A stretch of 51,616 nt of DNA from an uncultured bacterium (lineage in GTDB: Bacteria > Desulfobacterota > Dissulfuribacteria > Dissulfuribacterales > UBA3076). The notes beneath the pieces were generated by a model. It was given only the letters and a program-made list of their open reading frames with translations. It had not been told where the DNA came from and did no database searches. The translations under genes and the position numbers were made by a program. Position 1 is the first letter of the stretch. Each line of letters opens with the position of its first letter. Of the stretch, positions 13,006 through 48,353 are shown piece by piece. The stretch lies in NCBI GenBank assembly GCA_965539945.1, contig CBETWD010000001.1, positions 1 to 51,616 of the forward strand. The letters run 5' to 3'.

Positions 13006-13165
13006 GTAAGCGTTCACATGGCACCGCATCTGCTTTGTTGTCGGGCACTTGAAGTACAGGAAGTACGTCTGCGTACCCGTACGCCTCGCATCTGCAGCAC
13101 CCTGTAAACGCTTACAGCTCGGTGGGTTGCGGTAAAATGGGCGTTGTAATCCCGTGAACGGTTAC
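13006..13165 (+). mobile_element. Family F 160-bp MITE-like/structured element, copy 1 (second copy inverted at 44889-45047)
   Basis: Terminal inverted repeats GTAAGCGTTCAC...GTGAACGGTTAC. By eye about 90% identical to the reverse complement of 44889-45047. An internal inverted repeat ends at GTAAACGCTTAC. Confidence 0.8.
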
Positions 13166-13198
13166 GTTCTGAGAATAAGCATAGGGGGGAAGGAGATT

Positions 13199-15001
13199 AT
13201 GGATAAGAAGAAAATCTTGGTCGTAGGTTCCGGAGGACGCGAACACGTTCTTTGCTGGAAGCTGTCATCCAGTTCCAAAATTTCCAGAGTATTCTGTGCG
13301 CCCGGGAATGCCGGCATAAGTCAACATGCCGTCTGTGTGCCTTTAAAGGTCTCTGACATTAACGGCATTGTATCATTTGTCAAAAAGGAGGGTATCGATA
13401 TAACGTTAGTAGGCCCGGAAGCCCCTCTGGCTGAAGGTCTGGTAGACAAATTTAACGAACAGGGACTTGTAGTATTCGGACCCACTAAAGCGGCTGCTGA
13501 AATCGAGGCAAGTAAGGTATTTTCAAAAGACTTGCTCACTGAGGCAGGTATACGAACAGGGGCCTACAAGGTCTTTACCGAGCCGGATGCCGCCTTTGAT
13601 TATATCAAGAACGTAGTTGGAGTGCCCATTGCAATAAAGGCAGACGGGCTGGCAGCCGGCAAAGGGGTGTTGCTCGCCCATTCCCTCGCTGAGGCGGAGG
13701 AGGCAATAGATCTCATCCTTCGCAAAAAGGCCTTTGGCGAAGCGGGCAATCGTTTGATAGTAGAGGAATTTCTCACCGGGGAAGAAGCCTCCTTCATGGC
13801 TATAACCGATGGAACAACTGTCCTTCCTCTTGCCACTTCCCAGGACCATAAGCCCGTATTTGATAATGATCGGGGACCTAATACCGGCGGTATGGGTGCT
13901 TACTCCCCAGCCCCGGTGGTAAGCAGTATTCTGTTTGACGATATCATGGACACGGTTATGAGGCCCACAGTGGAAGCCATGGCAAGGGCAAAAAGGCCCT
14001 ATCAAGGAGTGCTTTATGGTGGCCTTATAATTAAAGACGGTATGTTTGAGGTCTTGGAATTTAACTGCCGGTTCGGTGATCCTGAGGCTCAGCCGATCCT
14101 GATGCGACTCCGCACTGACCTGATGGAAGTATTTGAGGCGGCACTTGAAGGCAGGCTGAATGAAGTCAAACTTGAGTGGGATCCAAGGGCTGCTGTCTGC
14201 GTTGTCCTGGCCTCCGGAGGCTATCCTGGAAGTTATGAGACAGGCAAGGTCATCCATGGCCTGGAAAAAGTGGCTGAGATGCAGGACGTAATGGTTTTTC
14301 ACGCAGGGACTGCCAAGGATGGAGACCGATTCATCACAGCCGGCGGAAGAGTCCTTGGGGTTACGGCACTTGGGAATACCGTTTCAGAGGCAATAGACCT
14401 TGCATATGAAGCAGTCGGACAAATTTCCTGGGAAGGCATGCACTATAGAAGGGATATTGGTCAAAAGGCCCTCAGATACACGTCCAGTGCGACCAGTACG
14501 CCGGTTTCCCCGCATCCCGGCAGCTCTGCCAAGGTAGGTATTGTCATGGGAAGCCTCAGTGACAAGGGGGTTATGGAAGCGGCCCGGGATATTCTTAATG
14601 AATTTGATATTGCATGTGAGCTGAGGGTTGCTTCAGCCCATCGCTCACCGGAACTTACTGCATTATATGCCAGGGAGGCAGAAACCAGAGGAATAAAGGT
14701 CTTGATTGCCGGCGCCGGAATGGCCGCACACCTGGCCGGCAGTCTGGCAGCAAATACGATCCTCCCTGTAATAGGGGTGCCTGTGGATAGTTCGGCCTTG
14801 AATGGACTTGATGCCTTGCTTTCCACTGCCCAGATGCCCCCTGGTGTCCCGGTTGCAACCATGGCAATAGGAGAAGCCGGGGCAAAAAATGCCGCCTTGT
14901 TGGCACTACAGATCCTGGCATTGGAAGACCAGGACCTTGCAGGGAAGTTGAAGGAATACAGAGAGGCCCAGGCAAAAAAGATAGAAGGATTTATTTTTTA
15001 A
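13199..15001 (+). CDS. purD-purE: Fusion of phosphoribosylamine-glycine ligase (PurD) and N5-CAIR mutase/AIR carboxylase catalytic subunit (PurE)
   Basis: PurD N-terminus KILVVGSGGREH with an ATP-grasp core. A Ser/Thr/Pro linker (SSATSTPVSPHPGSS) follows. PurE signature VGIVMGSLSD..ASAHRSP..IAGAGMAAHLAG. Start ATG 13199 lies after GGGGGGAAGGAG; the track start at 13154 lies inside repeat F. Confidence 0.85.
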   Translation: MDKKKILVVGSGGREHVLCWKLSSSSKISRVFCAPGNAGISQHAVCVPLKVSDINGIVSFVKKEGIDITLVGPEAPLAEGLVDKFNEQGLVVFGPTKAAAEIEASKVFSKDLLTEAGIRTGAYKVFTEPDAAFDYIKNVVGVPIAIKADGLAAGKGVLLAHSLAEAEEAIDLILRKKAFGEAGNRLIVEEFLTGEEASFMAITDGTTVLPLATSQDHKPVFDNDRGPNTGGMGAYSPAPVVSSILFDDIMDTVMRPTVEAMARAKRPYQGVLYGGLIIKDGMFEVLEFNCRFGDPEAQPILMRLRTDLMEVFEAALEGRLNEVKLEWDPRAAVCVVLASGGYPGSYETGKVIHGLEKVAEMQDVMVFHAGTAKDGDRFITAGGRVLGVTALGNTVSEAIDLAYEAVGQISWEGMHYRRDIGQKALRYTSSATSTPVSPHPGSSAKVGIVMGSLSDKGVMEAARDILNEFDIACELRVASAHRSPELTALYAREAETRGIKVLIAGAGMAAHLAGSLAANTILPVIGVPVDSSALNGLDALLSTAQMPPGVPVATMAIGEAGAKNAALLALQILALEDQDLAGKLKEYREAQAKKIEGFIF

Positions 15002-15785: not shown

Positions 15786-15814
15786 CTTTGAACCCTGAAC
15801 CCTGAACCTGGAAC
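15786..15814. repeat. Family A heptamer repeat in reverse orientation (TGAACCC units)
   Basis: CTTTGAACCCTGAACCCTGAACCTGGAACC in the tsaC-mltG intergenic region. Confidence 0.8.
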
Positions 15815-15848
15815 CGATCATTTTACGAAAAACCCCAATCTAAAGAAT

Positions 15849-19700: not shown

Positions 19701-21458
19701 ATGCGTTTTCCTTATAAAGATAAGAGAATTTTGTTCCTTTTTGCCCTGGCAGGTCTTGTGATCATTGCCACATCATTTGTTGGTTGCTTTTGGCAGAACA
19801 ACAGTATTAATGGCGAAGATGATATTGATTCGTCCAGGCTTTCTCAACAACAAAGCCGTGACTACTATTCCCAGCAAAGCCCCCTGTACAGGGGCATAGT
19901 TCTTGACAGAACAGGAGCGATATTCGCCGTAAGCCAAAAGACAATCTCTGCCCTGGCAAGGCCTTCCAAGTTGCCGCAAGTTGATGATTGGGCACCACAA
20001 GTATCAGAAATTCTTGGTCTTGATCCTCATGCTGTGACAAAACTGCTGTCGGAGGAACACGGCGTTATCTGTCTAAAAGACGGCATTTCCGTAGAACAAG
20101 GCCTGAAGCTGAAAGACATGCGGCTTAACGGAATAGAAATACTGGAAAAATATAAAAGGGTATATCCTTGCGGTTCACTGGCTTCTCCGGTTTTGGGGTT
20201 TGTCGATCAAGGCGGCAGGGGCCTTGAGGGAATTGAATATACATATGATAGCCTTTTAAGCCATACTAATGTGTCACAAATTCACGCAGGTGGACAGGAG
20301 CTTACGCTTACCCTTGAAAAAAACATTCAGGCATCAGCGGAAAAAGAGCTTGGCAGGCAGATGAAAAGACTTAAGGCCGATAAAGGCTGTTTTGTTATAA
20401 TGAGTGTTGAAAACGGTGAGATCCTTGCCCTTGCCAGCAAGCCTTCCTGGGACCCGGAACGTTTTTGGGAACTACCTGCGACGAATATTACAAATTACTC
20501 TCTGCAAGATAATGTTGACCTGATGGTCCTCGCGCCTCTCTTAAACTGGATGTTTGAACAAAGTGAGCTTCCAAAATCAGAAATCCAACCTTTGGACAAA
20601 ATGGCCCACAAGTGGAAATGGGAGACTTTGGGTAAAGGTCTGGTCCTGTGGAGTCCCTGGGCTGAACAGGAGCTGAAAGATTTTGTCTCTTATGACGACC
20701 TGTCAAGGGATTTCTTGGGTCTGGGGTTTGGTCAGTCTACAGGTATTGACCTTCCGGGTGAAGGCCAAGGCAGCCTGTCTTCAGCCCTGCCAAGGTCACA
20801 GAATTGCTTCTTACGCCGGGGTATTACAGCCAGTCCGATCCAGATTCTCAGGGCCTTCTCCGTCCTGATAAATGAAAATGTATTGGTGACACCACACGTG
20901 GCTCTACAAAGCCCTAATGAATTCCTGACATCCGAGTCTTCTGTGAAGGACCAAAGGCAGGCCAAAATCCCATGGTTAACAGAAGAGCTTATACTTAAAT
21001 TGCGGAAAAACCTCGCGGTCAAAGGAGGGCCTTCTCTTGCGAGCATCAGGTGGAATGAACAGTCTGAGCAAATATCTACTCAATTTCCAGCCCAGGTTAC
21101 TGCCCTGGGATTCTGGCCCGACAAATCACCCAAAGTAAGTTATATTGTTTTGCTCGACGGCGTAAAAATTGATCCTCGTGAACGCCGGGGCACTTTAGGG
21201 CGAGCACTAAAAGTAGCAAAACAGGCGGCACAGATACCCTTGAAAGACAAATGGCGAACGGTGAAAAGCCAAGAGACCAAAAAAGAACTCTCCAGGATGC
21301 CAAATCTTAAGGGAAAATCCGTAAGACAGGCCTTGGATATTCTGCAATCCATAGGCATTTCCACCAAACTCAAAGGTGTAGGGACTGTGATCGCACAGAA
21401 ACCAAGATCAGGAATACCTCTTAAGGGTGTGAATGTCTGCAGTATAACCTGTAAATGA
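19701..21458 (+). CDS. ftsI: FtsI/PBP3-like class B penicillin-binding protein homologue with C-terminal PASTA domain; transpeptidase motifs appear degenerate
   Basis: 585 aa with a TM anchor and PBP dimerisation-like motifs YRGIVLDRTGAIFA and GLEGIEYTYD. Transpeptidase-fold landmarks ILALASKPSWDP, LGFGQSTGIDLPGE, ASPIQILRAF. The C-terminal PASTA-like sequence is PNLKGKSVRQALDIL..GTVIAQKP. No SXXK is present at the expected site, and KGG replaces KTG. Confidence 0.75.
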   Translation: MRFPYKDKRILFLFALAGLVIIATSFVGCFWQNNSINGEDDIDSSRLSQQQSRDYYSQQSPLYRGIVLDRTGAIFAVSQKTISALARPSKLPQVDDWAPQVSEILGLDPHAVTKLLSEEHGVICLKDGISVEQGLKLKDMRLNGIEILEKYKRVYPCGSLASPVLGFVDQGGRGLEGIEYTYDSLLSHTNVSQIHAGGQELTLTLEKNIQASAEKELGRQMKRLKADKGCFVIMSVENGEILALASKPSWDPERFWELPATNITNYSLQDNVDLMVLAPLLNWMFEQSELPKSEIQPLDKMAHKWKWETLGKGLVLWSPWAEQELKDFVSYDDLSRDFLGLGFGQSTGIDLPGEGQGSLSSALPRSQNCFLRRGITASPIQILRAFSVLINENVLVTPHVALQSPNEFLTSESSVKDQRQAKIPWLTEELILKLRKNLAVKGGPSLASIRWNEQSEQISTQFPAQVTALGFWPDKSPKVSYIVLLDGVKIDPRERRGTLGRALKVAKQAAQIPLKDKWRTVKSQETKKELSRMPNLKGKSVRQALDILQSIGISTKLKGVGTVIAQKPRSGIPLKGVNVCSITCK

Positions 21459-24400
21459 TGTTTGGTAATACACGGCACGAAAGGACATTGCGGGATATGT
21501 TAGAAGTGCTGAGACCTGCTGTTTCTATATCACCCGAGCTGGGTGACGTAAAAATCAGGGGCATGTCCGCAGACTCCAGACAGGTAAAGCGGGGATACAT
21601 ATTTGTGGCAATTCCCGGCACGGAACTTGATGGAAGACAATTTATCAATGATGCCGTGGAGAAAGGAGCCTCTGCCCTGCTAATGCCAAACCAAGATGTC
21701 CATCGTTACGTCAAGACCGTTCCTGGAGCACTTCCTGTTATAGGAGTGGACGACCCCAGGCTTTCAACCGGTCTTCTGGCAAGTGCCTTTTATGGAAATC
21801 CCAGTGAAAAAATGGCCCTTATAGCCATCACCGGTACTAATGGTAAGACTACGATCACATACCTCCTGGAAGGCATTTTCAGCAAAGCCGGGCTGAATCC
21901 TGGTGTAATCGGGACTGTAAACCAGAGACATTGTGGCATGGAGGTGCCTTCTGAACTCACTACCCCCGATGCCATAAAACTGCAAGAGATTCTGACCAAC
22001 ATGTCGGAGCAAGGGGCAAAGGCAGTGGCCTTAGAGGTATCTTCCCACGCCCTTGACCAGCAGAGGATCTCAGGGTGCAGTTTCGCTGCGTCTGTTTTTA
22101 CCAATCTGGGCCGCGATCACCTGGATTACCATCAAGACATGGAACAATATTTCCAGGCCAAGGTAAAATTGTTTTTGGAATATCCCTCTGATACGGCAAT
22201 TATCAACATTGATGATTTGTATGGAAGGCGCCTATGGGAGATACTACAAAGGAAAAAGATCAGTTATGGTCTCAGTCCTGAGGCCGAGGTAAGACCTGAG
22301 TTCCACTCAATCAATATTGATGGAATAACAGGTAAACTTGCCACGCCCAAAGGGCCTGTTTCCATAAAATCCAATCTTATAGGTTCGCACAATCTATACA
22401 ATATCTTGGCAGCAGTAGCGGCTTCAATCACCCTTGGGATAGATCACAACCATATTCAGACCGGCATAGAATCAATAACGCGTATTCCGGGAAGACTCGA
22501 TCCTGTGCATACCCCCCAGGGAGTGACCGCCCTTGTAGACTACGCCCACACTCCTGACGCCCTTGAAAGTGTCCTGAACTGCCTTATCGGATTAGGGCCC
22601 AAGCCTCTGATTTGCGTAATCGGCTGTGGAGGAGACAGAGACAGGGGCAAACGTCCTCTCATGGCGCAGGCAGCTGCTTCACTGGCAGATATTGTTGTGC
22701 TGACCTCGGACAATCCACGCACTGAAGATCCTCTTGCCATACTCGATCAGATGTTGAACGGCCTCAGAGACCTTCCTCCCCATCACCCTGCAACCAAAGC
22801 TGAAGTGAAGGTAATTCCAGACAGAAAAGACGCTATTTTATGGGCAGCAGAAAAAGCGCGGCCTGGTGCCTGTCTGCTCGTGGCCGGGAAAGGCCACGAA
22901 ACCTACCAGATAATCGGCAACGAACGACTTGCCTTTGATGACAGGAAAATATTGAAAGAGGCCTTTGGGGCAGAACGCAAGGTTCAAGGTTCAGGGTTCA
23001 AGGTTCAAGGTTCAAGGAATAAAAGACAAGGGTCGCAGTTAGAGAGTCTTGAGGATCGGGGGTTTCGATTAAAGGTTTCTCAGGTGGCAAGGGCTGTTGG
23101 AGCCAGGGTCCTTTCGGGTGACCCGGATACAGCAATCCATGGCATATCAACAGATTCCAGATCAGTAAGAAGAGGAAATATATTCTGGGCACTTTCAGGG
23201 GACCGTTTCAATGGTCATGATTTTGTCCTTGACGCTATAAAAAAAGGGGCCATCGGCGCAGTAGTCAGTTCGACCTTTGAATTTCGACATACGAATTTCG
23301 ACCTTCGCCGGCGTCCAGTTTTGTTGAAAGTCCAGGATTCCTTGAAGGCCCTGGGAGATTTCGCAGCATGGTATAAGAAATACCTTGGAATCAAGGTGGT
23401 CGGCATTACGGGCAGTTGCGGCAAGACCACTACAAAAGAACTGATTTTCTCGATCATGGGAAAGAAATGGAAAACGGCTAAAACCCCTGGGAATTTTAAC
23501 AACCTTATCGGACTCCCGCTCAGCCTGCTTTCGGCCAAATCCGATGATTCCTGGGCAGTGCTGGAAATGGGAACGAACCAACCGGGAGAAATACCCCGGC
23601 TGTGTGAAATTGCCAAGCCACAAGTGGGCCTTATTACTACCATACAGCCTGCCCACCTTGTCGGCCTTGGGGACATAAAGCAAGTAGCCAGGGAAAAATG
23701 GGAACTCTGGAGAGCCCTTCCCCAAGCAGGTGTGGCAGTGGTGAACCTTGACGACCCCCTGGTGATGGAAGGGGCCAAAGATCTAACGTGTCAAATAGTG
23801 GGCTATTCCATGGAACATAAGGCCCTGCCATCTTCAAATCACCAAATCACCAAATCACCAAATCACCAAATCACCTGCCTGTCCTGGACCCCGGGCGAGC
23901 ATGGCACTCTGCTGGATCTGGATATTGCCGGAAGCAGACTCTCTGTTGATCTTCCACTTATAGGAAGGGCGAATGTGCAAAATGCCGTTGCAGCCGCAGC
24001 TACAGGCCATGCAGTAGGGCTGACACCGGCCCGGATCAAGCAAGGGCTGGAGGAAGTAAAACCAATTTCAGGCCGCCTTTTTCTGAAAAATCTTGGACCT
24101 AAATGGAGGCTGATAGACGATTCTTATAATGCAAACCCCGGCTCTATGAGAGCGGCTCTTGAGACTCTCGATCTTTGGAGCAAAGGCGAAAAAAAGATAG
24201 CGATCCTGGGAGACATGTTGGAACTCGGAGATGCGGCCCACGACTTCCATCAGGATATTGGACGACTTTCAGCCGATACAGGGGTTGATTTTCTGATCTT
24301 CGTAGGCCAATTCGCGGATGCTGTTTCCAAAACCGCCCAAAAGGCCGGTATTTCGCAAAAGGCTATTCGCATCTTCCCTAATACGGAGGATTTGCTTTCC

Positions 24401-24523
24401 TGGATAGAATCAGCCGCCCTTGACTGCATGCCCTCTCCATCAACCATATTGGTAAAGGGATCACGGGCCATAGGCCTTGAGAGAGCTGTGGATGCCCTTA
24501 TCAGGCATCTGAGAGAGGAATAG
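21455..24523 (+). CDS. murE-murF: Single 1022-aa ORF fusing MurE (UDP-MurNAc-L-Ala-D-Glu:meso-DAP ligase) and MurF (UDP-MurNAc-tripeptide:D-Ala-D-Ala ligase)
   Basis: MurE part: [33 protein letters not shown]. MurF part: [34 protein letters not shown]. The two are joined by a heptamer-repeat-encoded linker. The ATGA start overlaps the ftsI stop. Confidence 0.85.
22979..23016 (+). repeat. Family A heptamer repeat translated as the MurE-MurF linker ([13 protein letters not shown])
   Basis: AAGGTTCAAGGTTCAGGGTTCAAGGTTCAAGGTTCAAGG, in the stop-free orientation, at the position where a murE stop and murF start would be expected. Confidence 0.9.
23269..23308 (+). repeat. Possible family C-like repeat inside murF (encodes [13 protein letters not shown])
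   Basis: TTCGACCTTTGAATTTCGACATACGAATTTCGACCTTCGC shares TTCGACAT/ATTTCGAC units with 10051-10097 and 17051-17202. Confidence 0.4.
23835..23875 (+). repeat. Family B octamer repeat (AAATCACC x5) in-frame in murF ([14 protein letters not shown])
   Basis: A perfect 8-nt period is directly visible. Confidence 0.9.
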
Positions 24524-24527
24524 GTTA

Positions 24528-25607
24528 ATGCTCTTTCATCTGCTATATCCCCTCCACGATATGTGGCCTATATTTAATGTCTTTCGCTATATCACTTTCA
24601 GGACAATATATGCGGCTGTTACTGCCCTCTCAATAATATTGTTCCTCGGGCCTTGGTTTATGAGACGCATGTGTGCAATGCAGATGGGCCAAATCATCAG
24701 GGACGACGGGCCGGCAAATCATCATGCAAAAGCCGGGACACCAAGCATGGGGGGCATATTAATCATTGTGTCCATCCTGGTCGCCACACTCCTGTGGGCC
24801 GACCTCAGGAATCTTTACGTGTGGATAAGCATTTTGATTCTTGTCGGTTACGGCACAATAGGCCTTGCGGACGACCTGCTGAAGATCAGAAAACAGAACA
24901 GCACAGGCCTGTCCGGCAGATGGAAACTCGTCTGGCAGACAGTCTTTGTACTTTTAGCCGCGTGTATAATTGCCGCACATGGTAAGTGGGATACCCATCT
25001 TAGTATTCCGTTTTTTAAGAACTTTCAGCCTGATCTCGGGATTATGTACGGTCTTTTCGCCCTACTTGTGGTCGTTGGGACCTCCAATGCGGTTAATTTG
25101 ACTGACGGTCTGGACGGACTTGCTACCGGCCCTTTCATAATAGCTGCATCAGTCTATGCCCTGTTTACATATCTGGCCGGCCATTTGACTCTTGCCCAAT
25201 ATCTCCAGATTCCTTCGGTTCCCGGCGCAGGAGAGCTTGCGGTGTTTTGTGGCGCAATGGTAGGGGCCGGTTTGGGTTTTCTCTGGTATAACACCTATCC
25301 TGCAGAGATCTTCATGGGAGATGTAGGTTCCCTTGCCGCGGGCGGTGCCTTGGGAACAGTGGCCGTTCTCTCAAAGCAGGAAATGCTGCTTGTAATTGTA
25401 GGTGGAGTCTTCGTAGTTGAGGCATTATCCGTAATTCTTCAGGTTTTTTACTTCAAAACAACAGGAGGCAAGAGGATCTTCCGTATGGCTCCCATCCATC
25501 ACCACTTTGAGCTTAAGGGATGGAAAGAGCCAAAGGTCATTGTAAGATTTTGGATAATTTCTATATTGCTGGGGCTGGTAGCAATCAGCACGCTCAAGCT
25601 GAGATAA
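24528..25607 (+). CDS. mraY: Phospho-N-acetylmuramoyl-pentapeptide transferase MraY
   Basis: 359 aa, polytopic. Motifs [34 protein letters not shown]. Confidence 0.95.
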
Positions 25608-25610
25608 AAA

Positions 25611-25688
25611 ATTTGGTGATTGAGGGATTTGGTGATTGAAATGTCTGTATTTGTCTGTGTGGGTCTGTGGCTAATTTGGTGATTGAGT
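25611..25688 (-). mobile_element. Family B module (octamer arms plus CACAGAC-rich core), intergenic copy in stop-containing orientation
   Basis: The reverse complement matches the in-frame murG module at 27789-27894, including the core AGCCACAGACCCACACAGACA..ACAGACATTTC. The right arm contains the murD GTG start. Confidence 0.85.
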
Positions 25689-27108
25689 GGAACTGAAGGG
25701 CAAAAAAGTAACAATACTGGGCATGGGGGTATCCGGCCGGGCAGCTGCTGGATGGATCGTCTCTCAGGGGGCACAAGTCATATGCAGTGACTTGAATCCC
25801 CTGAATAAGTGGCCTAAGGGCCTGGCAGACTGGTGTGACAAAAATGGCGTCGGAGTGGAGACAAAAAAACATAAGGTAGAGACCTGCCTTTCATCAGACC
25901 TGATAGTGGTCAGCCCTGGTGTTCCACCTGACATTCCTGCCCTTGAGGCAGCACGCAGGTCCAATGTCCCTGTGGTTGGAGAACTGGCCCTTGCGGCATC
26001 CTGCTGGAAAGGACCTCTAGTCGGCATCACCGGCACAAACGGAAAAACCACTACTACTATGCTTGTGGATGAGATGCTGAAAAAGGCCAATGTGCCCCAC
26101 GTAAGGGCTGGGAACATTGGAACACCATTATCCGCACTCATTGAAGAACATACTGAGGAAACTATCGCGGTCCTGGAGATTAGCAGTTTCCAGTTGGATT
26201 ACTTCCCAAGGACCAGGTACTTTTCCTTCACTCCTCCAAGGTTCAAGACAACAGCATGGCTCAATCTTGCGCCTGACCACCTTGATCGCTACCAGGACAT
26301 CAAGAGCTACGGAGAGAGCAAGGCAGTAATCTATGACTTCCAAAGGCCTGAAGATTGGGCCATTCGCAACACGGACGACAAGGAACTGGCAACGTGGAAG
26401 GACAGAGGACGTGCCAGAAGGCTCTATTTCGGGATGCTTCGCCCCGGAGTTCCTGGGGCCGGGCTGGATACCTCTTTGAAAAAAATTAACGTCATGTGGC
26501 CTGATAATAAATGGGAGGAATATGACTTAGAAGGCTGGTCCTTAAGGGGTCGACATAATATTGAAAACCTGGCTTGTGCCATACTTATTTCACGTCTGGC
26601 CGGTGCCGGTGCGGCTGCCGTACAGTCTGTTATCCAAAGCTTCAAAGCGGCACATCACAGACTTCAGTGGGTGGTCCAAAATGCGGGCATCGACTATTAT
26701 GACGACTCCAAGGCCACCAATGTTGCATCTGTACTTCGCGCACTGGAGTCTATAGATCAGCCAATAGTGCTTATCGTGGGCGGTCGCGGCAAGGGTGAAG
26801 ATTATGCTTCCCTGGCCGAGGCCACAAAAAAGGTGCGTATTCGTGGTACGATTGTTGTAGGCGAAGAGGCCAAGGCGTTTGAAAAAGTCCTGGGTAAGGT
26901 AATGCCGGTTATCCAGGTGAGTGGAACAAAAAACGGCAAAAAGACTATGAGAAAAGCCGTGGAGCAAGCAACGTCCCTGGCTGAGCCCGGTGATGCCATA
27001 CTCCTTTCCCCGGCCTGCTCCAGCTTTGATATGTTTAAGAACTATGAAGAACGCGGCATGGCATTTCAGGAAACAGCCAGGGAATTGGGGGATTTGGTGA
27101 TTGAGTGA
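25687..27108 (+). CDS. murD: UDP-N-acetylmuramoylalanine-D-glutamate ligase MurD
   Basis: 473 aa. [34 protein letters not shown]. The GTG start is immediately preceded by an in-frame TGA. The C-terminal GDLVIE and the stop are encoded by a family B arm. Confidence 0.9.
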   Translation: MELKGKKVTILGMGVSGRAAAGWIVSQGAQVICSDLNPLNKWPKGLADWCDKNGVGVETKKHKVETCLSSDLIVVSPGVPPDIPALEAARRSNVPVVGELALAASCWKGPLVGITGTNGKTTTTMLVDEMLKKANVPHVRAGNIGTPLSALIEEHTEETIAVLEISSFQLDYFPRTRYFSFTPPRFKTTAWLNLAPDHLDRYQDIKSYGESKAVIYDFQRPEDWAIRNTDDKELATWKDRGRARRLYFGMLRPGVPGAGLDTSLKKINVMWPDNKWEEYDLEGWSLRGRHNIENLACAILISRLAGAGAAAVQSVIQSFKAAHHRLQWVVQNAGIDYYDDSKATNVASVLRALESIDQPIVLIVGGRGKGEDYASLAEATKKVRIRGTIVVGEEAKAFEKVLGKVMPVIQVSGTKNGKKTMRKAVEQATSLAEPGDAILLSPACSSFDMFKNYEERGMAFQETARELGDLVIE

Positions 27109-27295
27109 TTGAGTGATTTGGTGATTTGAGAGAAGGGAATTTATTTGAAATCGCAGATGCAGGCAGATTGTGAACTTAGCGCCCTCCGGGCGGACTTAGA
27201 AAATGGAAATTCCTATACTGTGAATTTAACTATGAGCCGAGAAATACATAAGCACAAAACAATCACCAAATCACCAAATCACCAAATCACCAAAT
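27090..27295. mobile_element. Family B composite element spanning the whole murD-murG junction (inverted octamer arms around a core with a GC hairpin)
   Basis: Left arm GGTGATT units (27090-27129), right arm AATCACCA units (27259-27295). The core contains ACTTAGCGCCCTCCGGGCGGACTT (27174-27199). Confidence 0.8.
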
Positions 27296-28488
27296 TAGTC
27301 GTGGCTGGTGGCGGCACAGGTGGACACGTGTTTCCCGGAATGGCCGTGGCTGAGGCCATGGAGTCCCATGGCCGTATAGATGTTCTATGGATAGGCACAG
27401 GCCGCCCGGTGGAAAAAAATGCACTCTCAGGACGTAAATGGGATTACCGAATCCTGAACACAAGGCCTCTTAGGGGCTCAGGCCTTGCGGCAACCATGCG
27501 TTCTTTGGCTGGACTTCCTTTCTCCACGATCAGGGCGTGTTCGTGGCTTAAATCATTCAGGCCTCATGTGGTACTGGGTGTCGGGGGATATGTCTCCGGG
27601 CCTGCACTTCTTGCAGCGAGAATGTTGCGGATACCCGCAGCCCTCCATGAGCAGAACCTTATCCCCGGGCTCACAAATCGTTTGGCCTCCAGGTTCGCAA
27701 AGACAGTGTTTGTGAGCTTTAAAGAAACTGTTAAGTACTTTCCAAAAAACAGGGTAATTTTTACTGGAAATCCCATACGGAAAAACATAATTCAATCACT
27801 CAATCATTCAATCACCAAATCATTAGCCACAGACCCACACAGACACACACGGACATTTCAATCACCAAATCACTCAATCACCAAATCACTCAATCTTCTG
27901 GTCCTGGGAGGCAGTCAGGGTGCCAGATGCCTGAACCGGCTTGCCGGTTCGGCCATACAGGTTTTGTGGCAATCCGGTTTTCATTTGGAAATTATTCACC
28001 AAACCGGCAAGCTGGATGTGTCACATGTTGAGAAATTTTACAAGGATGCAAACATTCCGGCCAAAGTGACCCCATTTATCTCTAACATTGGTGAATCCTA
28101 TTCCTGGGCAGACCTGGTTATCTGCCGGGCCGGAGCGGGTACTCTGGCTGAGCTCACAACCTTGGGAAAGCCCTCGATCCTCATTCCCTATCCCTGGGCA
28201 ACTGACAGCCATCAGGATGCCAACGCCAGAGAACTGACTGAAGCCGGGGCTGCCAAATACTTCCTGGAAGAAGAAATCGGTGCTATAAAACTGGCGGGAG
28301 AGATACAGTCTTTGCTGGAGGATCCCCAAAAGCTCATCAATATGGGAGAAAATGCTCGAAAACTTGGAAAACCAACGGCAGCCGCAGAGATAGCCTCTAC
28401 ACTGATAGAGATGGCCGGACATACTTTTTCATATTCTGAAACAGAAACTAATTCATTGAAAGGTTCTACAGTACGTAACCATGTATAA
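27232..28488 (+). CDS. murG: Undecaprenyldiphospho-muramoylpentapeptide beta-N-acetylglucosaminyltransferase MurG, with repeat-encoded N-terminus and repeat-encoded interdomain insert
   Basis: VVAGGGTGGHVFPG, LLVLGGSQGA, and a C-terminal GT28 domain (ICRAGAGTLAEL). The start is uncertain: ATG 27232 is chosen here, and the TTG at 27145 in the ORF track would translate the junction element core. Confidence 0.85.
   Translation: MSREIHKHKTITKSPNHQITKLVVAGGGTGGHVFPGMAVAEAMESHGRIDVLWIGTGRPVEKNALSGRKWDYRILNTRPLRGSGLAATMRSLAGLPFSTIRACSWLKSFRPHVVLGVGGYVSGPALLAARMLRIPAALHEQNLIPGLTNRLASRFAKTVFVSFKETVKYFPKNRVIFTGNPIRKNIIQSLNHSITKSLATDPHRHTRTFQSPNHSITKSLNLLVLGGSQGARCLNRLAGSAIQVLWQSGFHLEIIHQTGKLDVSHVEKFYKDANIPAKVTPFISNIGESYSWADLVICRAGAGTLAELTTLGKPSILIPYPWATDSHQDANARELTEAGAAKYFLEEEIGAIKLAGEIQSLLEDPQKLINMGENARKLGKPTAAAEIASTLIEMAGHTFSYSETETNSLKGSTVRNHV
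27789..27894 (+). mobile_element. Family B module inserted in-frame in the murG interdomain linker (about 35 codons: ..QSLNHSITKSLATDPHRHTRTFQSPNHSITKSLN..)
   Basis: It has the same arms and core as the intergenic copy at 25611-25688, in opposite orientation. The reading frame is maintained into LLVLGGSQGA. Confidence 0.85.
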
Positions 28489-29875
28489 AAAACAACATAT
28501 GCATTTTATAGGAATTGGCGGAATAGGCATGAGCGGCCTTGCAAAGGTCCTTCTTAATCTTGGATATAGAGTCACGGGTTCTGATTTGCGTGAGACTGAA
28601 ATCACCAGGTCCCTCAAAGAATTGGGGGGTACAATTTACAGGGATCACGCCCCTGAAAATATTCAGGGCGCAGACGTGGTGGTGATTTCCTCTGCTGTCA
28701 GAGAAAACAACCCTGAGGTTCAGGAGGCTTATTCTGCCCAAATTCCAGTCATACCAAGGGCTGAAATGCTTGCGGAATTGATGCGGCTTAAGAAGTTCGG
28801 CATAGCAGTGGCCGGGGCCCATGGAAAGACCAGCACGACCTCCATGCTCTCTTCTGTGCTTCGCGCCGGTGGCCTTGATCCAACGGTCATCATAGGAGGG
28901 AAGGTGAATGGCCTGGGAAGCAATGCCTGTTGGGGACAGGGCGAGTTCCTGATAGCAGAAGCCGATGAGAGTGACGGAAGCTTTTTGCGCCTTACGCCAA
29001 GCATAGCTGTAGTAACCAATATAGACAAGGAACACCTGGACTATTATCCGGACTTGAATGCCATAATCCGGTGTTTTCTGGATTTTATAGACAAAGTCCC
29101 TTTCTATGGTCTTGCCATACTCTGCGGAGATGATCCCCACCTCAGAGAAATGCTCCCGGTAGTAAAAAAACGGGTAATGACTTATGGGACAGGACCTGAG
29201 TCTGATCTGCAGGCCAGAGATATCACCTTTGAAGGCCTGGGAGTATCCTTTAATGCCTGGTGGCAAAACTCCGAACTCGGCGAGATACAACTCAAGGTTC
29301 CCGGGCTGCACCATGTAAGAAATTCCCTGGCTGCAACGGCCCTGGGACTTGAACTTGAGATACCCTTTCACAAGATCCGGACCGGTCTTATGTCATATGA
29401 AGGCGTAAGCAGACGATTTGAGATATTGGGTGAAACAGAGGGAGTGACAGTAGTAGATGATTACGCCCACCACCCCACTGAGATACGGGCCACCCTCTCA
29501 GCTGCCAGGGCATGTTGGCCTGAACGCCGGCTCGTGGTTCTTTTTGAACCCCACCGGTACAGCAGAACCCAGATATTAATGGACGATTTCACCACGGCCT
29601 TTGGGGAAGCTGATGAACTATGGCTGACGGAAATCTATCCAGCCAGTGAAACTCCCATAGTAGGAGTCAGCGGAAAACGTCTGGCAAGAAACATCAGGGA
29701 TAGACGTGGTGGACCAGTGCACTATGTAGAGTCCTGCGGGGATCTTCCTCGGGTAGTTGTACCAAGCCTGCAGGAGGGTGACGTGGTCATGACTCTTGGG
29801 GCCGGTGCCATAGGGCGTATGGGACCAAAAATTCTGGACATGCTTAAGACAAAGGAGTCAGCGCTTGCTCTCTAA
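28481..29875 (+). CDS. murC: UDP-N-acetylmuramate-L-alanine ligase MurC
   Basis: 464 aa. HFIGIGGIGMSGLA, GAHGKTSTTSM, DDYAHHPTE. The start overlaps the murG stop. Confidence 0.95.
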   Translation: MYKKQHMHFIGIGGIGMSGLAKVLLNLGYRVTGSDLRETEITRSLKELGGTIYRDHAPENIQGADVVVISSAVRENNPEVQEAYSAQIPVIPRAEMLAELMRLKKFGIAVAGAHGKTSTTSMLSSVLRAGGLDPTVIIGGKVNGLGSNACWGQGEFLIAEADESDGSFLRLTPSIAVVTNIDKEHLDYYPDLNAIIRCFLDFIDKVPFYGLAILCGDDPHLREMLPVVKKRVMTYGTGPESDLQARDITFEGLGVSFNAWWQNSELGEIQLKVPGLHHVRNSLAATALGLELEIPFHKIRTGLMSYEGVSRRFEILGETEGVTVVDDYAHHPTEIRATLSAARACWPERRLVVLFEPHRYSRTQILMDDFTTAFGEADELWLTEIYPASETPIVGVSGKRLARNIRDRRGGPVHYVESCGDLPRVVVPSLQEGDVVMTLGAGAIGRMGPKILDMLKTKESALAL

Positions 29876-30785
29876 GGATCTAGAAAGGATAGAAGATCTT
29901 CAGGTGCGCAAGAATGTTCCGCTTTTACCGCTAACAAGCTTTCGCATAGGCGGGCCTGCGCATCTATTTCTGGTTCCACGGACCTTGAAGGCCCTTGAAC
30001 AGACCATTTCTTATCTCAGTAATCGTTCCATATCCTATAAGGTGCTGGGCCAGGGGAGCAACCTGTTGATCAGCGATAAAGGCGTGAAGCTGGTCATGAC
30101 CCTGACAGCCCTGAATCGCATCCACTCTTTGCAACATGGGAGAACAGCTCATGGCCATCCCTTTAAAACAGTGTCTGTAGAGGCAGGATGCAGGCTGAAG
30201 TCTCTTCTTTCCTGGTCCATACGCAACGGCCTGTGTGGTCTTGAGAATCTTTCGGGCATTCCGGCCAGTGTAGGTGGGGCCATATCCATGAACGCAGGCA
30301 CTAACAAGTGCTCCATGGCGGAAGCGATAGACGCTGTGCAATTTACAGGGCCGGACGGGAGTTGCTGGTTCCGGAGAGATCAATTGCAATTTGATTACAG
30401 GTCTTTCAGACTGCCGGACAAGACCCTTATCTCTGCTGCTGGAATTCAATTTGGCAAAAGCAGCCCTGATCAGATCAGGCGCCGTGTCAGAAAGGTGATG
30501 TACAAACGGAGAACCACCCAGCCTATAGGAAAACCAAGCGCAGGGTGCATTTTTAGAAATCCTCCGGGAGATTCAGCAGGAAAGCTTATAGACCAATGTG
30601 GACTCAAGGGTCTTAGGATCGGGGACGCCGAGGTATCCAAAAGGCATGCGAATTTTATTGTAAACCGTGGGAAAGCCGGTGCCGTACAGGTAATGGACTT
30701 GCTGGAAATTATTAGAGAGCGTGTAAAAAAAGAGACTGATGTAGAACTTGTCCCGGAAGTATCTATTTGGGGTATGGAAACATGA
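29865..30785 (+). CDS. murB: UDP-N-acetylenolpyruvoylglucosamine reductase MurB
   Basis: 306 aa with a TTG start. FRIGGPA, GQGSNLL, SAGCIFRNP, SKRHANFIVN. Confidence 0.9.
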   Translation: MLSKDLERIEDLQVRKNVPLLPLTSFRIGGPAHLFLVPRTLKALEQTISYLSNRSISYKVLGQGSNLLISDKGVKLVMTLTALNRIHSLQHGRTAHGHPFKTVSVEAGCRLKSLLSWSIRNGLCGLENLSGIPASVGGAISMNAGTNKCSMAEAIDAVQFTGPDGSCWFRRDQLQFDYRSFRLPDKTLISAAGIQFGKSSPDQIRRRVRKVMYKRRTTQPIGKPSAGCIFRNPPGDSAGKLIDQCGLKGLRIGDAEVSKRHANFIVNRGKAGAVQVMDLLEIIRERVKKETDVELVPEVSIWGMET

Positions 30786-31627
30786 AAATTAGAAGGCGGT
30801 CTTCAGAATTCAGGTCTTCAGCACGTAGCTCCGGCTCGCGGAACAAGTCTACCAAACCGGTATTTTCCGTATCGTGGCCTTTTCACCCTAAAATATTGAT
30901 TGGCATAGCTATAATGTGCCTTGGCCTTGCCGGCTTTTTTATGTGTCACCATTGGGCATGTCAATCTGACCTTTTCAGGGTCTGTCAAGTCCTGGTTAAA
31001 GGCTGCGATCGCATCACAGAAGAGGAGATTTTACAACTGAGCAATGTGACCGCCAAGGACAATCTCCTGTCTCTCGATCTGAAATCAATTGCAACGTCCA
31101 TAGAGGTGCATCCATGGGTCCATACTGTTGAAGTTAAGAGAAAACTGCCGGATCACCTAATGATTACGATCAAAGAACGTACTCCGGTAGCCCTGTTGAA
31201 TTCTGACAAAATCTATTTGGTTGATAAACAAGGTGAAATTATCGATAAACTTTCTACGGAAGATCCCATCTCTCTTCCCATCATTACCGGGATTGATCCA
31301 AAGAACATAAAAAATCACCAAATCACCAAATCACCAAATCACCAAATCCAAAAGGCCCTGGAATTAATATCCATGGCAAGCAAGGGCACAAGGACTCTGG
31401 GTGTAAACAATATTAGCCAAATAGACATAGCCAAGAAAGATATCTTAATACTTTATACATCTGACAGCGGTATTCCTTTTCACTTTGATACTGAAAATCT
31501 CAGTGCCCAATTCAGTAAGGCGGAAAAGGTCCTGTATCAACTCTATCGCTCAGGAATATATAAGAAAGCAGCTAAGGTTGATTTGGATTACGGCCCTGGT
31601 CAGGCTTTAACCAGTCTGAAACATTAG
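30782..31627 (+). CDS. ftsQ: Cell division protein FtsQ (POTRA domain) with an in-frame octamer-repeat insert
   Basis: TM helix, then POTRA (VKGCDRITEEEILQLS..VHPWVHTVEVKRKLPDHLMITIKERTP). I chose the ATG 30782, which overlaps the murB TGA; the track start is TTG 30767. Confidence 0.8.
   Translation: MKIRRRSSEFRSSARSSGSRNKSTKPVFSVSWPFHPKILIGIAIMCLGLAGFFMCHHWACQSDLFRVCQVLVKGCDRITEEEILQLSNVTAKDNLLSLDLKSIATSIEVHPWVHTVEVKRKLPDHLMITIKERTPVALLNSDKIYLVDKQGEIIDKLSTEDPISLPIITGIDPKNIKNHQITKSPNHQIQKALELISMASKGTRTLGVNNISQIDIAKKDILILYTSDSGIPFHFDTENLSAQFSKAEKVLYQLYRSGIYKKAAKVDLDYGPGQALTSLKH
31311..31348 (+). repeat. Family B octamer repeat in-frame in ftsQ ([14 protein letters not shown])
   Basis: AAATCACC x4 plus a partial unit, directly visible. 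Confidence 0.9.
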
Positions 31628-41791: not shown

Positions 41792-43645
41792 TCAGTGCCC
41801 GGCGGCTCTTAGTTCCTGTACCAGCGTCAAAGGGATCTCCCACTTGTTGAGAGGACTGATCAAATAAAGTCCGTCAGCGAACTGAGTGATGTCGGCAATC
41901 AGCTTCCTGGTTAGGTCCAGGGCCGCCTTTCGTTGGTCTTCGACCTTTTCATACTTCCACAGATGTTCTCGAATCTCCCTGGGAATTGAAATGCCTGGGA
42001 TTTCGTTGTGCAGGAAATCCGCATTTCTGGCAGATATGAGGGGAAAGATACCTGTGAAAACCAAGAGGTCCAGGTGTTGCGTCCGTTCCATCATGGCCTC
42101 TACGGCATCTCGATCAAAAATTGGTTGCGTCATGACAAAATGTGCACCCAGATCGGCCTTTCGTTCCAGCCTGCTGATCTGGAGATCAGGATTGGCGGGA
42201 TGATAGCTGAAGGCCACACCAATAGAGAAATCGGTCCGCTTTTTCATTGAGGCCCCTGCCATGTTCAGCCCGTGGTTGAGCTGATCTATCATCTGCACCA
42301 GGCCAAAGGAGTGGACATCGAATACTCCGCTCACACCGGGCTGATCCGTGGAGGTGGCCGGATCTCCAGTGACAGCCAAGATGGCCTCTAATCCAAGGAC
42401 ATGAGCTCCCATAATCTGTGCCTGAAGACCCAAGATATTCCGATCCCTGCAGGTCAGATGAAGTACTGTCTGTATCCCTGTCTCCTCCCGTATTCTGTGT
42501 GCAAGGGACAGATTGTCCGCCCGTAGAACGGCCAGGGGGTGTTCGGCGAGAGTGATGGCATCAGCGCCCGCCTCGGCTAAGGCCCGTGCTCCGGTAAGAA
42601 TTCCCTCTACATCCAGATGCCTGGGAGGATCTACTTCCACAAGCACTGGAATGCGGTCGGATCTCAGGCTCTCGATCATTCCGCCCCTGCCAATGGAGTC
42701 CTTTCTGTCTTCGGGCAAATCAGAGGATTTCTCCACGCTGGTTACAACCCGTGTGGTCTTGTGTCTTTTGAGGTGGAGGTGCTTTCTGAATTCATGGATA
42801 TGGGCCGGTGTAGTACCGCAGCACCCGCCAATCAACCGGACTCCGAACTTGACCATTTCAGCCACTTTGTCGGCCATATATGCCGGCGGTGTCGAATATA
42901 CCATGCGGTGTTCTACGATCTCAGGGAGTCCGGCATTGGGAAACGCTGAAAGGAAAACCTCATCTTTGAGGGGAGACAGCCGCTTAACTGCTGAGAGCAT
43001 AGCCTTGACTCCCCGTCCGCAATTGGTACCAACGACCGTGGCCCCTGCAGCGGCTGTTGCCCTGCCACAATCCAAGGCGTCCAGGCCGATGGCTGTCCGC
43101 CCGTGGAACGGGTAGACCATCTGGGCCACAATCGGGATTTCGGGTGCAATTTTTTTGGCCGTCTCAATGGCCAAAAGCAGTTCGTCCAGGTAGGTAAAGG
43201 TCTCAAGAATGAACAGATCCACCCCGCCTTCCAACAGGGCAGTCATCTGTTCAACAAAGGCCTCCTGTACTGTGCCGGACTCAACCTCATCATTCTCAAG
43301 TGGAAAATTTACACCTGTCGGGCCGATTGATCCGGCCACAAAAATCTCATTCCCTGCAGCCCGGCATGCCAGCTCAGCCCCCTTAAGATTAATTTCTCGC
43401 ACCTTATGCTCATGGCCGACCCTGAGCATTTTGAAACGATTGGCACCAAAGGTATTGGTCTCAATGAGTTCGCTCCCGGCCCGAATGTATTCCTCATGAA
43501 TGGAATAGACCAGGTCCGGATCGCTGATGTTAAGCAAATCAGTATTCTTTGCGAGGTCTACACCTTTTTCAAAGAGATAGGTCCCAAAGGCGCCATCTCC
43601 CAATATGACTTTCTCGTTAAGGTATTCTACGAAGTTATGTTTCAT
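41792..43645 (-). CDS. Bifunctional homocysteine S-methyltransferase domain / 5,10-methylenetetrahydrofolate reductase (YitJ-like)
   Basis: 617 aa. The N-terminal Hcy-binding domain has ILGDGAFGT..ETNTFGAN..GGCCGTTP. The C-terminal MTHFR-like sequence has EVDPP..LHLTCRD..AVTGDP. Confidence 0.85.
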   Translation of the reverse strand: MKHNFVEYLNEKVILGDGAFGTYLFEKGVDLAKNTDLLNISDPDLVYSIHEEYIRAGSELIETNTFGANRFKMLRVGHEHKVREINLKGAELACRAAGNEIFVAGSIGPTGVNFPLENDEVESGTVQEAFVEQMTALLEGGVDLFILETFTYLDELLLAIETAKKIAPEIPIVAQMVYPFHGRTAIGLDALDCGRATAAAGATVVGTNCGRGVKAMLSAVKRLSPLKDEVFLSAFPNAGLPEIVEHRMVYSTPPAYMADKVAEMVKFGVRLIGGCCGTTPAHIHEFRKHLHLKRHKTTRVVTSVEKSSDLPEDRKDSIGRGGMIESLRSDRIPVLVEVDPPRHLDVEGILTGARALAEAGADAITLAEHPLAVLRADNLSLAHRIREETGIQTVLHLTCRDRNILGLQAQIMGAHVLGLEAILAVTGDPATSTDQPGVSGVFDVHSFGLVQMIDQLNHGLNMAGASMKKRTDFSIGVAFSYHPANPDLQISRLERKADLGAHFVMTQPIFDRDAVEAMMERTQHLDLLVFTGIFPLISARNADFLHNEIPGISIPREIREHLWKYEKVEDQRKAALDLTRKLIADITQFADGLYLISPLNKWEIPLTLVQELRAAGH

Positions 43646-48106: not shown

Positions 48107-48353
48107 GTAACCGTTCACGGGTTCAAAGGTTCAGGGTTCAAAGGTTAAGATGTTCGGGGTTTACCAAAAACTTGAACCGTTGATTCGTGAATTCTGAATG
48201 GAGAAGGCATGAGAAAAAAACGAGGAGAGCATATGTCATACCCCCCTAAATTTGAGGATATTGGGGCATGGCACTTGGCCCGAGACCTAACTCGCAAGGT
48301 CAACGGAAGAAAGGTAACCCTGAACGGTGAACCCTGAACCCGTGAACGGTTAC
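48107..48353. mobile_element. Composite element with about 40-bp inverted arms (family F 12-mer plus family A heptamers) enclosing a gene fragment
   Basis: The left arm is CGTAACCGTTCACGGGTTCAAAGGTTCAGGGTTCAAAGGTT. The right arm is GGTAACCCTGAACGGTGAACCCTGAACCCGTGAACGGTTAC. Confidence 0.85.
48233..48337 (+). pseudogene. N-terminal fragment of a four-helix-bundle (23S rRNA intervening-sequence protein family) gene, truncated by the repeat arm
   Basis: An ATG follows GAGGAG. MSYPPKFEDIGAWHLARDLTRKV resembles the FEDLxVWQxAxxL first helix of that family. The frame then runs into heptamer repeats and stops. Confidence 0.45.

Follow-up and report, generated by a model that had tools for sequence, protein, structure and literature searches.

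How does a tandem repeat with a unit of 8 nucleotides (nt) come to lie inside genes for cell-wall synthesis and cell division? The question is raised by a 51,616-nt stretch of DNA from an uncultured bacterium (contig CBETWD010000001.1 of assembly GCA_965539945.1, here called the window), in which arrays of the octamer AAATCACC occupy the division and cell wall (dcw) cluster. Non-triplet tandem repeats are normally kept out of essential coding sequence, or act there as on/off switches. An earlier note on this DNA held such arrays in essential genes to be very unusual, and our analysis supports that judgement: the arrays are real and unusual. They are probably copies of a neutral or selfish dispersed repeat of ~36 bp that is copied as a block and filtered by reading frame and stop codons. 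They are not an adaptation of the dcw genes.

The closest MurG homologues come from the E20 SEEP-SRB2 metagenome-assembled genome (MAG), with 98% identity, and the nearest named relatives are Dissulfurimicrobium and Dissulfurirhabdus. From the MurG homologues and the genome scan described below, we assign the window to the SEEP-SRB2-type Thermodesulfobacteriota. SEEP-SRB2 bacteria are sulfate-reducing partners of methane-oxidising archaea.

Octamer arrays at six places in the dcw cluster

Arrays were located with Tandem Repeats Finder (TRF) and a mismatch search, and the region 23700-31500 was read directly. Period-8 arrays of AAATCACC or close variants were present at six places in the dcw cluster. 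A search for the 16-mer AAATCACCAAATCACC with up to three mismatches gave 23 matches, all within 23836-31351 (mean 0.70, maximum 4 in shuffled sequences). Three arrays are perfect by TRF, with 5.1 copies at 23835-23875, 4.4 at 27260-27295 and 4.6 at 31312-31348; the other three have variant units such as AATCACTC and AATCATTC. As in simple sequence repeats (SSRs) and their long class (LSSRs), a unit of 1-11 nt is repeated head to tail over more than the length expected by chance. The arrays and their parts are as follows.

23835-23875, + strand: murF array, AAATCACC x5.1, in frame, 15-16 residues, in the MurF half of the fused murE-murF open reading frame (ORF) 21455-24523
25611-25688, - strand: mraY-murD spacer composite, with GGTGATTT-type units, then a CACAGAC core and further units ending in GGTGATTGA
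27088-27128, - strand: array at the murD 3' end, encoding the last MurD residues GDLVIE and the TGA stop at 27106-27108
27260-27295, + strand: MurG N-terminal block of 36 nt, CAATCACC AAATCACC AAATCACC AAATCACC AAAT, MurG residues ~10-21
27789-27826, + strand: left block of the MurG interdomain linker, decayed octamers, AATCACTC / AATCATTC variants
27827-27857, + strand: decamer module of the MurG linker, AGCCACAGAC CCACACAGAC ACACACGGAC, translated (A)TDPHRHTRT
27858-27895, + strand: right block of the MurG linker, octamers alternating AATCACCA / AATCACTC
31312-31348, + strand: FtsQ array, AAATCACC x4.6, in frame, 12-13 residues, within the FtsQ ORF 30782-31627

The MurG linker as a whole (27789-27895) is thus a composite of array, CACAGAC core and array. 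According to the ORF listing, the four + strand arrays (MurF, MurG twice and FtsQ) are translated in frame. The N-terminal array of MurG yields 12 residues downstream of the murG ATG at 27232, and we found no start codon in or downstream of this array that would retain strand beta-1. The remaining two loci, the mraY-murD spacer and the murD 3' end, carry the reverse complement GGTGATTT, an orientation that the earlier note does not mention; the spacer array ends in GGTGATTGA immediately upstream of the murD GTG (25687) and is the only copy that abuts a downstream start codon. Both counts in the earlier note, six loci with the same unit or variants and four arrays translated without a break in the frames of MurF, MurG and FtsQ, therefore hold. 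The window contains housekeeping genes only, an intact mutS among them, and the window ORFs scanned showed neither a transposase nor a reverse transcriptase.

A stereotyped 36-nt block in SEEP-SRB2-type genomes

We then scanned one genome per species for an exact 24-mer of three units, a choice that hides short and decayed arrays, and obtained at least 117 matched contigs. The matches listed, to which the site and host counts below refer, comprise many SEEP-SRB2-type MAGs; the rest belong to Saprospiraceae, Chitinophagaceae, Bacteroidales, Acidobacteriota, Planctomycetota and others. Viral contigs gave one match. On SEEP-SRB2-type contigs, most arrays lie in sense orientation within long ORFs or at their starts; those of the other phyla stand mostly between genes and are up to 172 nt long.

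The SEEP-SRB2-type arrays were found in ~20 different proteins identified by Pfam. These include the beta subunit of PheRS (PheT), ValRS, LeuRS (in the editing domain), ProRS, SelB and a CCA-adding or poly(A) polymerase, all of translation; DnaE (at its N-terminus) and HrpA; and YhdP, GpsA, a multihaem cytochrome, a radical SAM protein, a GH57 protein, HPPK, an amidohydrolase, an MTHFR-domain protein (at its N-terminus) and a prepilin leader. The family is therefore genome-wide in the SEEP-SRB2 clade, and the dcw cluster is one well-populated region. The statement in the earlier note that the family is confined to this cluster is right for the window and wrong for the genome, and colonisation is not peculiar to the dcw operon, since the same block sits in ~20 other housekeeping genes. 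One defined sequence is dispersed in frame through housekeeping genes, as is known for Rickettsia palindromic elements (RPE) and similar miniature inverted-repeat transposable elements (MITE). Two ORFs carry an array between two enzyme domains in a single frame, Mur-ligase-TGT (L044, E20 SeepSRB2) and TP_methylase-cytidylyltransferase (L069, MAG069), and stop-free arrays may fuse neighbouring genes.

After de-duplication, which was approximate for orthologous sites, 49 SEEP-SRB2 sites remained. A perfect run of 35-37 nt was present at 29 of the 49. The run starts at phase 0 or 1 of AAATCACC at 37 sites (chi-square p = 4e-13) and ends at phase 4 or 5 at 33 (p = 1e-8); length, start phase and end phase all agree at 25/49. 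The typical form, (C)CAATCACC AAATCACC AAATCACC AAATCACC AAAT, is 36 nt long and holds 4.5 copies, or 12 codons. Edge units are more degenerate than inner units. Runs of the same unit in other phyla span 20-101 nt, with phases over all eight positions and one excess at start phase 7. Boundaries and lengths that are free from locus to locus, as expected of LSSRs, were thus seen in the other phyla and not in SEEP-SRB2. All three codon phases occur among the ORF-embedded blocks, which argues that insertion is blind to reading frame. Growth by 8-nt steps is not possible inside an essential ORF, and we reasoned that the blocks arrived as units of 3n nt.

Three further observations concern the distribution. 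The octamer is multi-copy in some unrelated genomes, namely Bacteroidales MFD05684.bin.1.26, several Saprospiraceae, Isosphaeraceae and Acidobacteriota. In these unrelated genomes it often adjoins arrays of other octamers, such as GGTGAGGN in L115 and GAAGTTAG and ACTTCCTA in L070. Five loci of the MAG "archaeon isolate JL_RS_05_5" (L019, L047, L074, L078 and L079) have arrays at sites that match SEEP-SRB2 bacterial genes. We did not accept these matches as archaeal: the array of L019 stands at the same position in an ORF of murE-murF size with MurF-like flanks, and the bin is probably contaminated or mislabelled.

Sequence arithmetic decides where each orientation can lie

The only T of AAATCACC always precedes C, so that this orientation has no stop in any frame. 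Because 8 and 3 have no common factor, all three frames give one cyclic hydrophilic peptide, KSPNHQIT, and the block of 36 nt, being 12 codons, keeps the frame. The reverse complement GGTGATTT has TGA in all frames. Sense arrays in the window lie inside ORFs, and antisense arrays only in the spacer or at a gene 3' end, because AAATCACC is stop-free and GGTGATTT carries TGA. One orientation with stops in all frames, the other open, and placement to match are features of TAACTGA-type repeats (discussed below). The block consists of direct repeats only, one strand being free of G, with neither a palindrome nor terminal inverted repeats, and the array flanks show no consistent target-site duplication.

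Octamer arrays lay in long ORFs in 36 of 68 cases, as against 4 of 50 for heptamer arrays; the latter are most often 31-34 nt long, and most of these lengths cannot be divided by three. We did not rely on a 4.5-copy rule common to the heptamers, which is probably in part an effect of the TRF threshold.

Length changes in steps of 24 nt

Strains differ in copy number by whole units, as is usual for SSRs and LSSRs. In FtsQ, HPPK, LeuRS and MurF, strain or species variants differ by exactly 8 amino acids (aa), that is 24 nt or three units. The FtsQ array is 13 or 37 nt long, and FtsQ of sister strains is shorter by exactly 8 aa; the loop at the array site of distant orthologues is either shorter or much longer and unrelated. 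Among close relatives, MurG linkers built of repeats alone vary in length by 8 or 16 aa, and distant MurG orthologues have a non-repeat linker of about minimal length. The LeuRS array has 38 or 62 nt.

HPPK displays a series of array states, with 12, 36 and 60 nt. The outgroup reads TCC AAT CAG GGG ATC CAG, and many relatives read TCC AAT CAC CAA ATC CAC, or 1.5 units. The clade of the window has gained 24 nt to reach 4.5 units, one variant has gained 48 nt, and the L122 lineage carries the long form in decayed state. The 12 nt replaced in the outgroup have AATCA and ATC in common with the ends of the block; this single case would fit priming by microhomology.

No frameshifted form was seen among the homologues compared. 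Slippage by one unit should be at least as common as slippage by three, and its absence therefore points to selection, which the earlier note had offered as one option; the arrays would impose a standing frameshift load on essential genes. Contingency loci have frameshifted ON/OFF alleles of dispensable genes; here the hosts are essential (MurF, MurG, FtsQ, aminoacyl-tRNA synthetases and DnaE) and the variants seen among homologues are three-unit only.

Arrays are old and drift at the rate of unconstrained sequence

To date the arrays, we used four orthologous dcw loci (L118, L119, L120 and L122) that were obtained via MurG, independently of the repeats. Array columns were compared with third codon positions of murEF, murG and ftsQ.

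L118: MurG identity to the window 98%, arrays at the same sites; array identity 95.2%, third-position identity 88.9%
L119: MurG identity ~88%, arrays partly at the same sites; array identity 79.2%, third-position identity 79.7%
L120: MurG identity 84%, arrays decayed; array identity 75.5%, third-position identity 73.1%
L122: MurG identity 74%, arrays barely recognisable; array identity 58.8%, third-position identity 55.3%

Array divergence is close to the rate at third codon positions, which is the behaviour of unconstrained sequence. An apparent conservation of 99% between the arrays of MAG pairs was rejected as an ascertainment artefact of choosing loci by exact match. Judging from these alignments, the dcw arrays are old and not recent: they stand at orthologous sites, with their length kept, down to 74% MurG identity. 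The interval between the GIDPK and QKA anchors of FtsQ is 69 nt in all five lineages, and the ftsQ stretch of L122 retains its 8-periodicity with the repeat decayed. The murF array is orthologous in L118 and L019, decayed in L120 and 24 nt shorter in L122.

Turnover is also visible. The murD 3'-end array has other copy numbers in L119 and L120 and is deleted in L118. The MurG N-terminal array carries the same substitution in all four units in L119, and in alternate units in L118, which indicates turnover within arrays.

Arrays lie at variable sites of the proteins

An AlphaFold model of MurG (26 sequences; predicted template modelling score, pTM, 0.80) had a predicted local distance difference test score (pLDDT) below 50 at residues 1-16 and 195-217, which are the array-encoded regions, and at the C-terminal tail. 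The MurF array falls in a gap-rich stretch, in the central domain, of the alignment to E. coli MurF 1GG4. In the FtsQ model, the array accounts for residues ~178-189, which make up a loop and the first part of helix 183-199 at a pLDDT of 83-86. All orthologues vary at the MurG linker and at the FtsQ loop. Alignment and structure prediction, the checks proposed in the earlier note, thus place the array segments in variable or low-confidence regions. By that note, its reading would be refuted if repeat-free orthologues had equivalent segments. This is the case in part: a variable loop or linker does exist there, and the array occupies and lengthens it.

Exchange between arrays and the decamer element

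The mraY-murD spacer of the window has ~50 nt, consisting of array and CACAGAC core, beyond L118 and L119, which have a simple array only. These ~50 nt closely match the MurG-linker composite in inverted orientation, and an exact 19-mer is shared by 25652-25670 and, on the opposite strand, 27827-27845. One copy event has therefore taken place between arrays 2.2 kb apart. The MAG069 spacer (L031) has the same composite as the window. At the MurF loop site of L119 (6710-6741), the octamer array has given way to an array of another repeat family, the heptamer AATTCAA x4.6, which is 9 nt shorter.

The core reads ATT AGCCACAGAC CCACACAGAC ACACACGGAC ATTT in the MurG linker and spans 27827-27857 and 25640-25670 in the window. 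None of its six frames contains a stop, because it has no T except in its flanks and its complement has no A. Its first 20 nt recur exactly in at least 120 metagenome contigs of 36-66% GC. Among the matches listed, copies of the decamer module are mostly intergenic (110/131), and ATT precedes 78 of 119 copies. We folded each copy separately against shuffled controls and found a strongly folding region downstream (dG <= -12 kcal/mol) in 50/119 copies versus 19/119 when shuffled. Aligned copies share a stem of ~12 bp with a CGAC loop, in which the sequence varies between copies and the pairing is kept; a second small hairpin comes next in 24 copies. The CACAGAC core is thus the 5' module, made of three 10-mers, of an uncharacterised intergenic element of ~100 nt. 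It had no Rfam family at gathering or E-value thresholds, and a literature search on the decamer core found nothing. In the SEEP-SRB2-type contigs examined, the decamer module occurs only with octamer arrays on its flanks. A third junction of array and decamer module lies at ~3450 (-) of L069, from MAG069, and runs into an N-masked stretch.

Arrays recur in independent assemblies

Since the sequences were taken from metagenome-assembled genomes and contig ends fall at the arrays, an artefact of assembly or polishing, with the real genes interrupted or array-free, had to be considered. It is exceedingly unlikely. The same arrays, with intact frames, stand at the same sites in the independent assemblies L118, L119 and L019. 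A Logan contig from another read set (L125, SRR15668622; 1788 nt, with identical MraY) runs from the murF array to the mraY-murD array, so that arrays and junctions agree between assemblies and between read sets. Frames are intact in dozens of genes. Neither misassembly nor hidden frameshifts, the two technical faults that the earlier note had named, thus account for the arrays. Arrays of ~36 nt should fit inside single short reads; the blocks break k-mer assemblies, and SEEP-SRB2 MAGs are probably fragmented there.

Other features of the window

A second, heptamer family is present in the same stretch.

22978-23017, + strand: array in the MurE-MurF linker, CAAGGTT x5.7, the stop-free orientation of the TGAACCY family, 12 residues

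The TGAACCY family also occurs at 2047-2097, 15789-15815, 48113-48161 and 48316-48347. At 2047-2097, TTCAGGG x7.3 occupies the gap between skp (2097-2660, -) and a transketolase gene (90-2039, -); the coding-strand unit CCCTGAA has TGA in all frames, a stop-bearing placement like that of the antisense octamer. murE and murF form one ORF of 1022 aa in all five lineages, with a hypervariable linker. ftsW is missing between murD and murG and throughout the dcw cluster, in the window (25687-28488) and in the four orthologous loci. The murD-murG spacer holds a segment of ~50 nt (~27152-27201) that is not in L119 or L120 and contains a G+C-rich hairpin, GCGCCCTCCGGGCGG, with ACTTAG on each side. Other fused ORFs in the window are PurD-PurE (GARS and AIR carboxylase, 13154-15001), at whose junction no tandem repeat was seen, and homocysteine S-methyltransferase-MTHFR (41792-43645).

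Discussion

We favour, as somewhat the better bet, a neutral or selfish block that is tolerated in loops, interdomain linkers and termini after a simple filter of frame and stops. A block of ~36 bp, (A)AATCACC AAATCACC AAATCACC AAATCACC AAAT(C), would have been copied to dozens of unrelated sites in the SEEP-SRB2-type lineage. Templated repair or ectopic gene conversion, with short homologies or arrays already in place as primers, would be the likeliest route. In sense orientation, 12 stop-free codons would survive within genes wherever loops, linkers or termini tolerate them; the antisense block GGTGATTT would persist between genes and at 3' ends, where it could donate a stop, as in murD, and a Shine-Dalgarno-like GGTGA, also at murD. 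After insertion, a block drifts at about the neutral rate, presumably without a function of its own, and within ORFs the slippage that survives is in three-unit (24-nt) steps. Arrays also exchange sequence with other arrays and could bridge neighbouring genes into single ORFs. The observations themselves establish the anatomy and distribution of the arrays, the filters, the neutral rate, the 24-nt steps and one copy event between arrays; how the block is copied and its lack of function are inferred.

Several points weigh against this account. We found no enzyme, template or target-site duplication in the window ORFs and flanks, and saw no clean pair of an empty site and a site filled with 36 nt. 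Net gains over outgroups are +24 nt in HPPK and MurF, which also fits local expansion from a 12-nt seed. The perfect arrays of the window clade, set against the decayed ones of L120 and L122, would imply ongoing homogenisation. According to the model, the FtsQ array would be partly built into the fold at a hypervariable site, so that not every array would be a floppy passenger. Recurrence of the octamer across phyla is left unaccounted for. Finally, given the approximate de-duplication, the site counts are not fully independent, and loci chosen by an exact 24-mer leave short or decayed arrays out of view.

The arrays could instead be ordinary microsatellites, each grown in place by slippage from a chance seed with no copying between sites. 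The whole-unit differences between strains, the 1.5-unit short forms of HPPK and FtsQ (to which +24 nt gives the 36-nt form), the broad spread of lengths and phases of the same unit in other phyla and the more degenerate edge units would all suit such growth. We consider it doubtful, since unit, boundary phase and length are the same at ~49 sites, our own estimate puts the chance occurrence of a given 12-nt seed well below one per few-Mb genome, growth through 8-nt intermediates is impossible inside essential ORFs, and array and core were duplicated together between arrays 2.2 kb apart. Functional cis-elements at the RNA or DNA level, another alternative, are quite unlikely. The sense arrays would be C/A-rich unstructured translation enhancers or regulator sites, the antisense arrays a Shine-Dalgarno-like and stop module that couples genes, and pairing of the two would regulate the dcw mRNA. 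In the window, L118 and L119, the antisense array indeed runs right up to the murD start, giving GGTGATTGA-GTG or -ATG, and in three lineages it places GGTGA 3-4 nt upstream of that start; from what is known of the 16S 3' end, this GGTGA may be the ribosome-binding site. Many arrays also directly follow a start codon with an ATG-CAATCACC junction (DnaE and ORFs at L010, L074 and L103), inverted arrays flanking the murD-murG junction can pair with a dG of -71.5 kcal/mol (z = -4.06), and TAACTGA repeats have been proposed to act in translation (PMC4679880). Yet divergence in the array columns is like that of third codon positions, with decay in L120 and L122, arrays stand at any ORF position and in all codon phases, and their copy number or presence varies between close strains. 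The pairing arm at the murD end is deleted in L118, for which reason we rejected a conserved regulatory RNA duplex around the murG start.

Selection at the protein level on the KSPNHQIT peptide, whether as a flexible linker, as a tag for localisation or modification or as a motif for interaction, is very unlikely. It would explain arrays at the MurG interdomain linker and at the junctions of the fused ORFs (L044 and L069), and segment length is retained as the sequence decays. The hosts, however, include cytoplasmic enzymes as well as the membrane-anchored FtsQ and the N-terminal leader of a prepilin, the peptide is not conserved in L120 or L122, sister strains lack 8 aa of it, and nucleotide-level identity across unrelated genes argues for an origin at the DNA level. 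The suggestion in the earlier note of a function in RNA or protein thus drew no support from neutral divergence, the use of all codon phases or the unconserved pairing. Its other suggestion, active spread with selection for frame, stands in part: the repeat has spread as a unit, a block of ~36 nt at ~49 sites with the frame kept, but not recently. Recent colonisation is not borne out by arrays that are decayed and still at orthologous sites down to 74% MurG identity.

A bolder extension would make the octamer block and the decamer module (AGCCACAGAC CCACACAGAC nnACACAGAC) members of an unrecognised class of minimal mobile DNA, short stop-free tandem modules written by a sequence-specific templated process. 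The writer could be a dedicated recombinase, or else a polymerase or reverse transcriptase that carries an internal template. Such DNA would move between phyla, and its 3n length would permit harmless insertion in essential genes. If true, the idea would explain the fixed length and phase in SEEP-SRB2, the multi-copy octamer in unrelated phyla and the exact decamer 20-mer at 36-66% GC. It strikes us as rather improbable, and we keep it in view because the decamer element is exact in such different genomes.

The closest known relatives are the TAACTGA heptamer direct repeats of marine Beggiatoaceae, some Cyanobacteria and Bacteroidetes (MacGregor 2015, PMC4679880). Both families have a short non-triplet unit in few copies at very many genomic sites, one orientation with stops in all frames at intergenic, ORF-end or pre-start sites, and a patchy distribution across phyla with no known mechanism; the open orientation of TAACTGA, too, is occasionally translated at the protein periphery, including in MurG (PMC4679880). 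The unit here, AAATCACC, has 8 nt rather than 7, and its length (~36 nt) and phase are fixed. TAACTGA repeats are mostly intergenic, the majority a few nt upstream of starts, whereas about half of the arrays sampled here (the 36 of 68 given above) are in long ORFs, some of them at internal sites of essential enzymes.

LSSRs form the wider class, with tandem units of 5-11 nt over-represented in certain lineages (Mrazek et al. 2007, as summarised in PMC4679880). As far as that summary describes them, LSSRs likewise have a short tandem unit and copy-number change of the slippage type, but those in ORFs usually have triplet-multiple units; the 8-nt unit of the present family is frequent in ORFs since 4.5 units make a block of 36 nt, and the block's boundaries are stereotyped. 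The nearest functional analogue is the RPE, an in-frame selfish DNA (Ogata et al. 2000, reviewed in PMC10969869). By that review's account, RPEs share with the block dispersal in frame through many unrelated housekeeping genes and a peptide compatible with the fold; they are ~150 bp and palindromic, unlike the block of ~36 bp with direct repeats, no inverted termini and slippage lengths. Contingency loci, finally, also place a non-triplet repeat in coding sequence, where a one-unit change shifts the frame, but in surface or restriction genes rather than essential housekeeping genes with frame-preserving variants only. The octamer block thus lacks some of the defining features of each of these systems. 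Cyanobacterial short tandemly repeated repetitive (STRR) heptamers are a related class of repeats. Literature searches on the octamer dimer, the encoded peptides and Seep-SRB2 tandem repeats found nothing, and those on the single octamer gave unrelated matches only.

What allows the SEEP-SRB2-type lineage to tolerate an 8-nt repeat inside genes for the cell wall, division, replication and translation is that the repeat moves in blocks of 12 codons without a stop. In SEEP-SRB2 MAGs these blocks interrupt assemblies made from short reads, and they can lead gene callers and alignments astray. They are also a source of lineage-specific loops, linkers and possibly gene fusions, and they show, in a clean natural case, how the arithmetic of a sequence sets the places open to selfish or mutational DNA.

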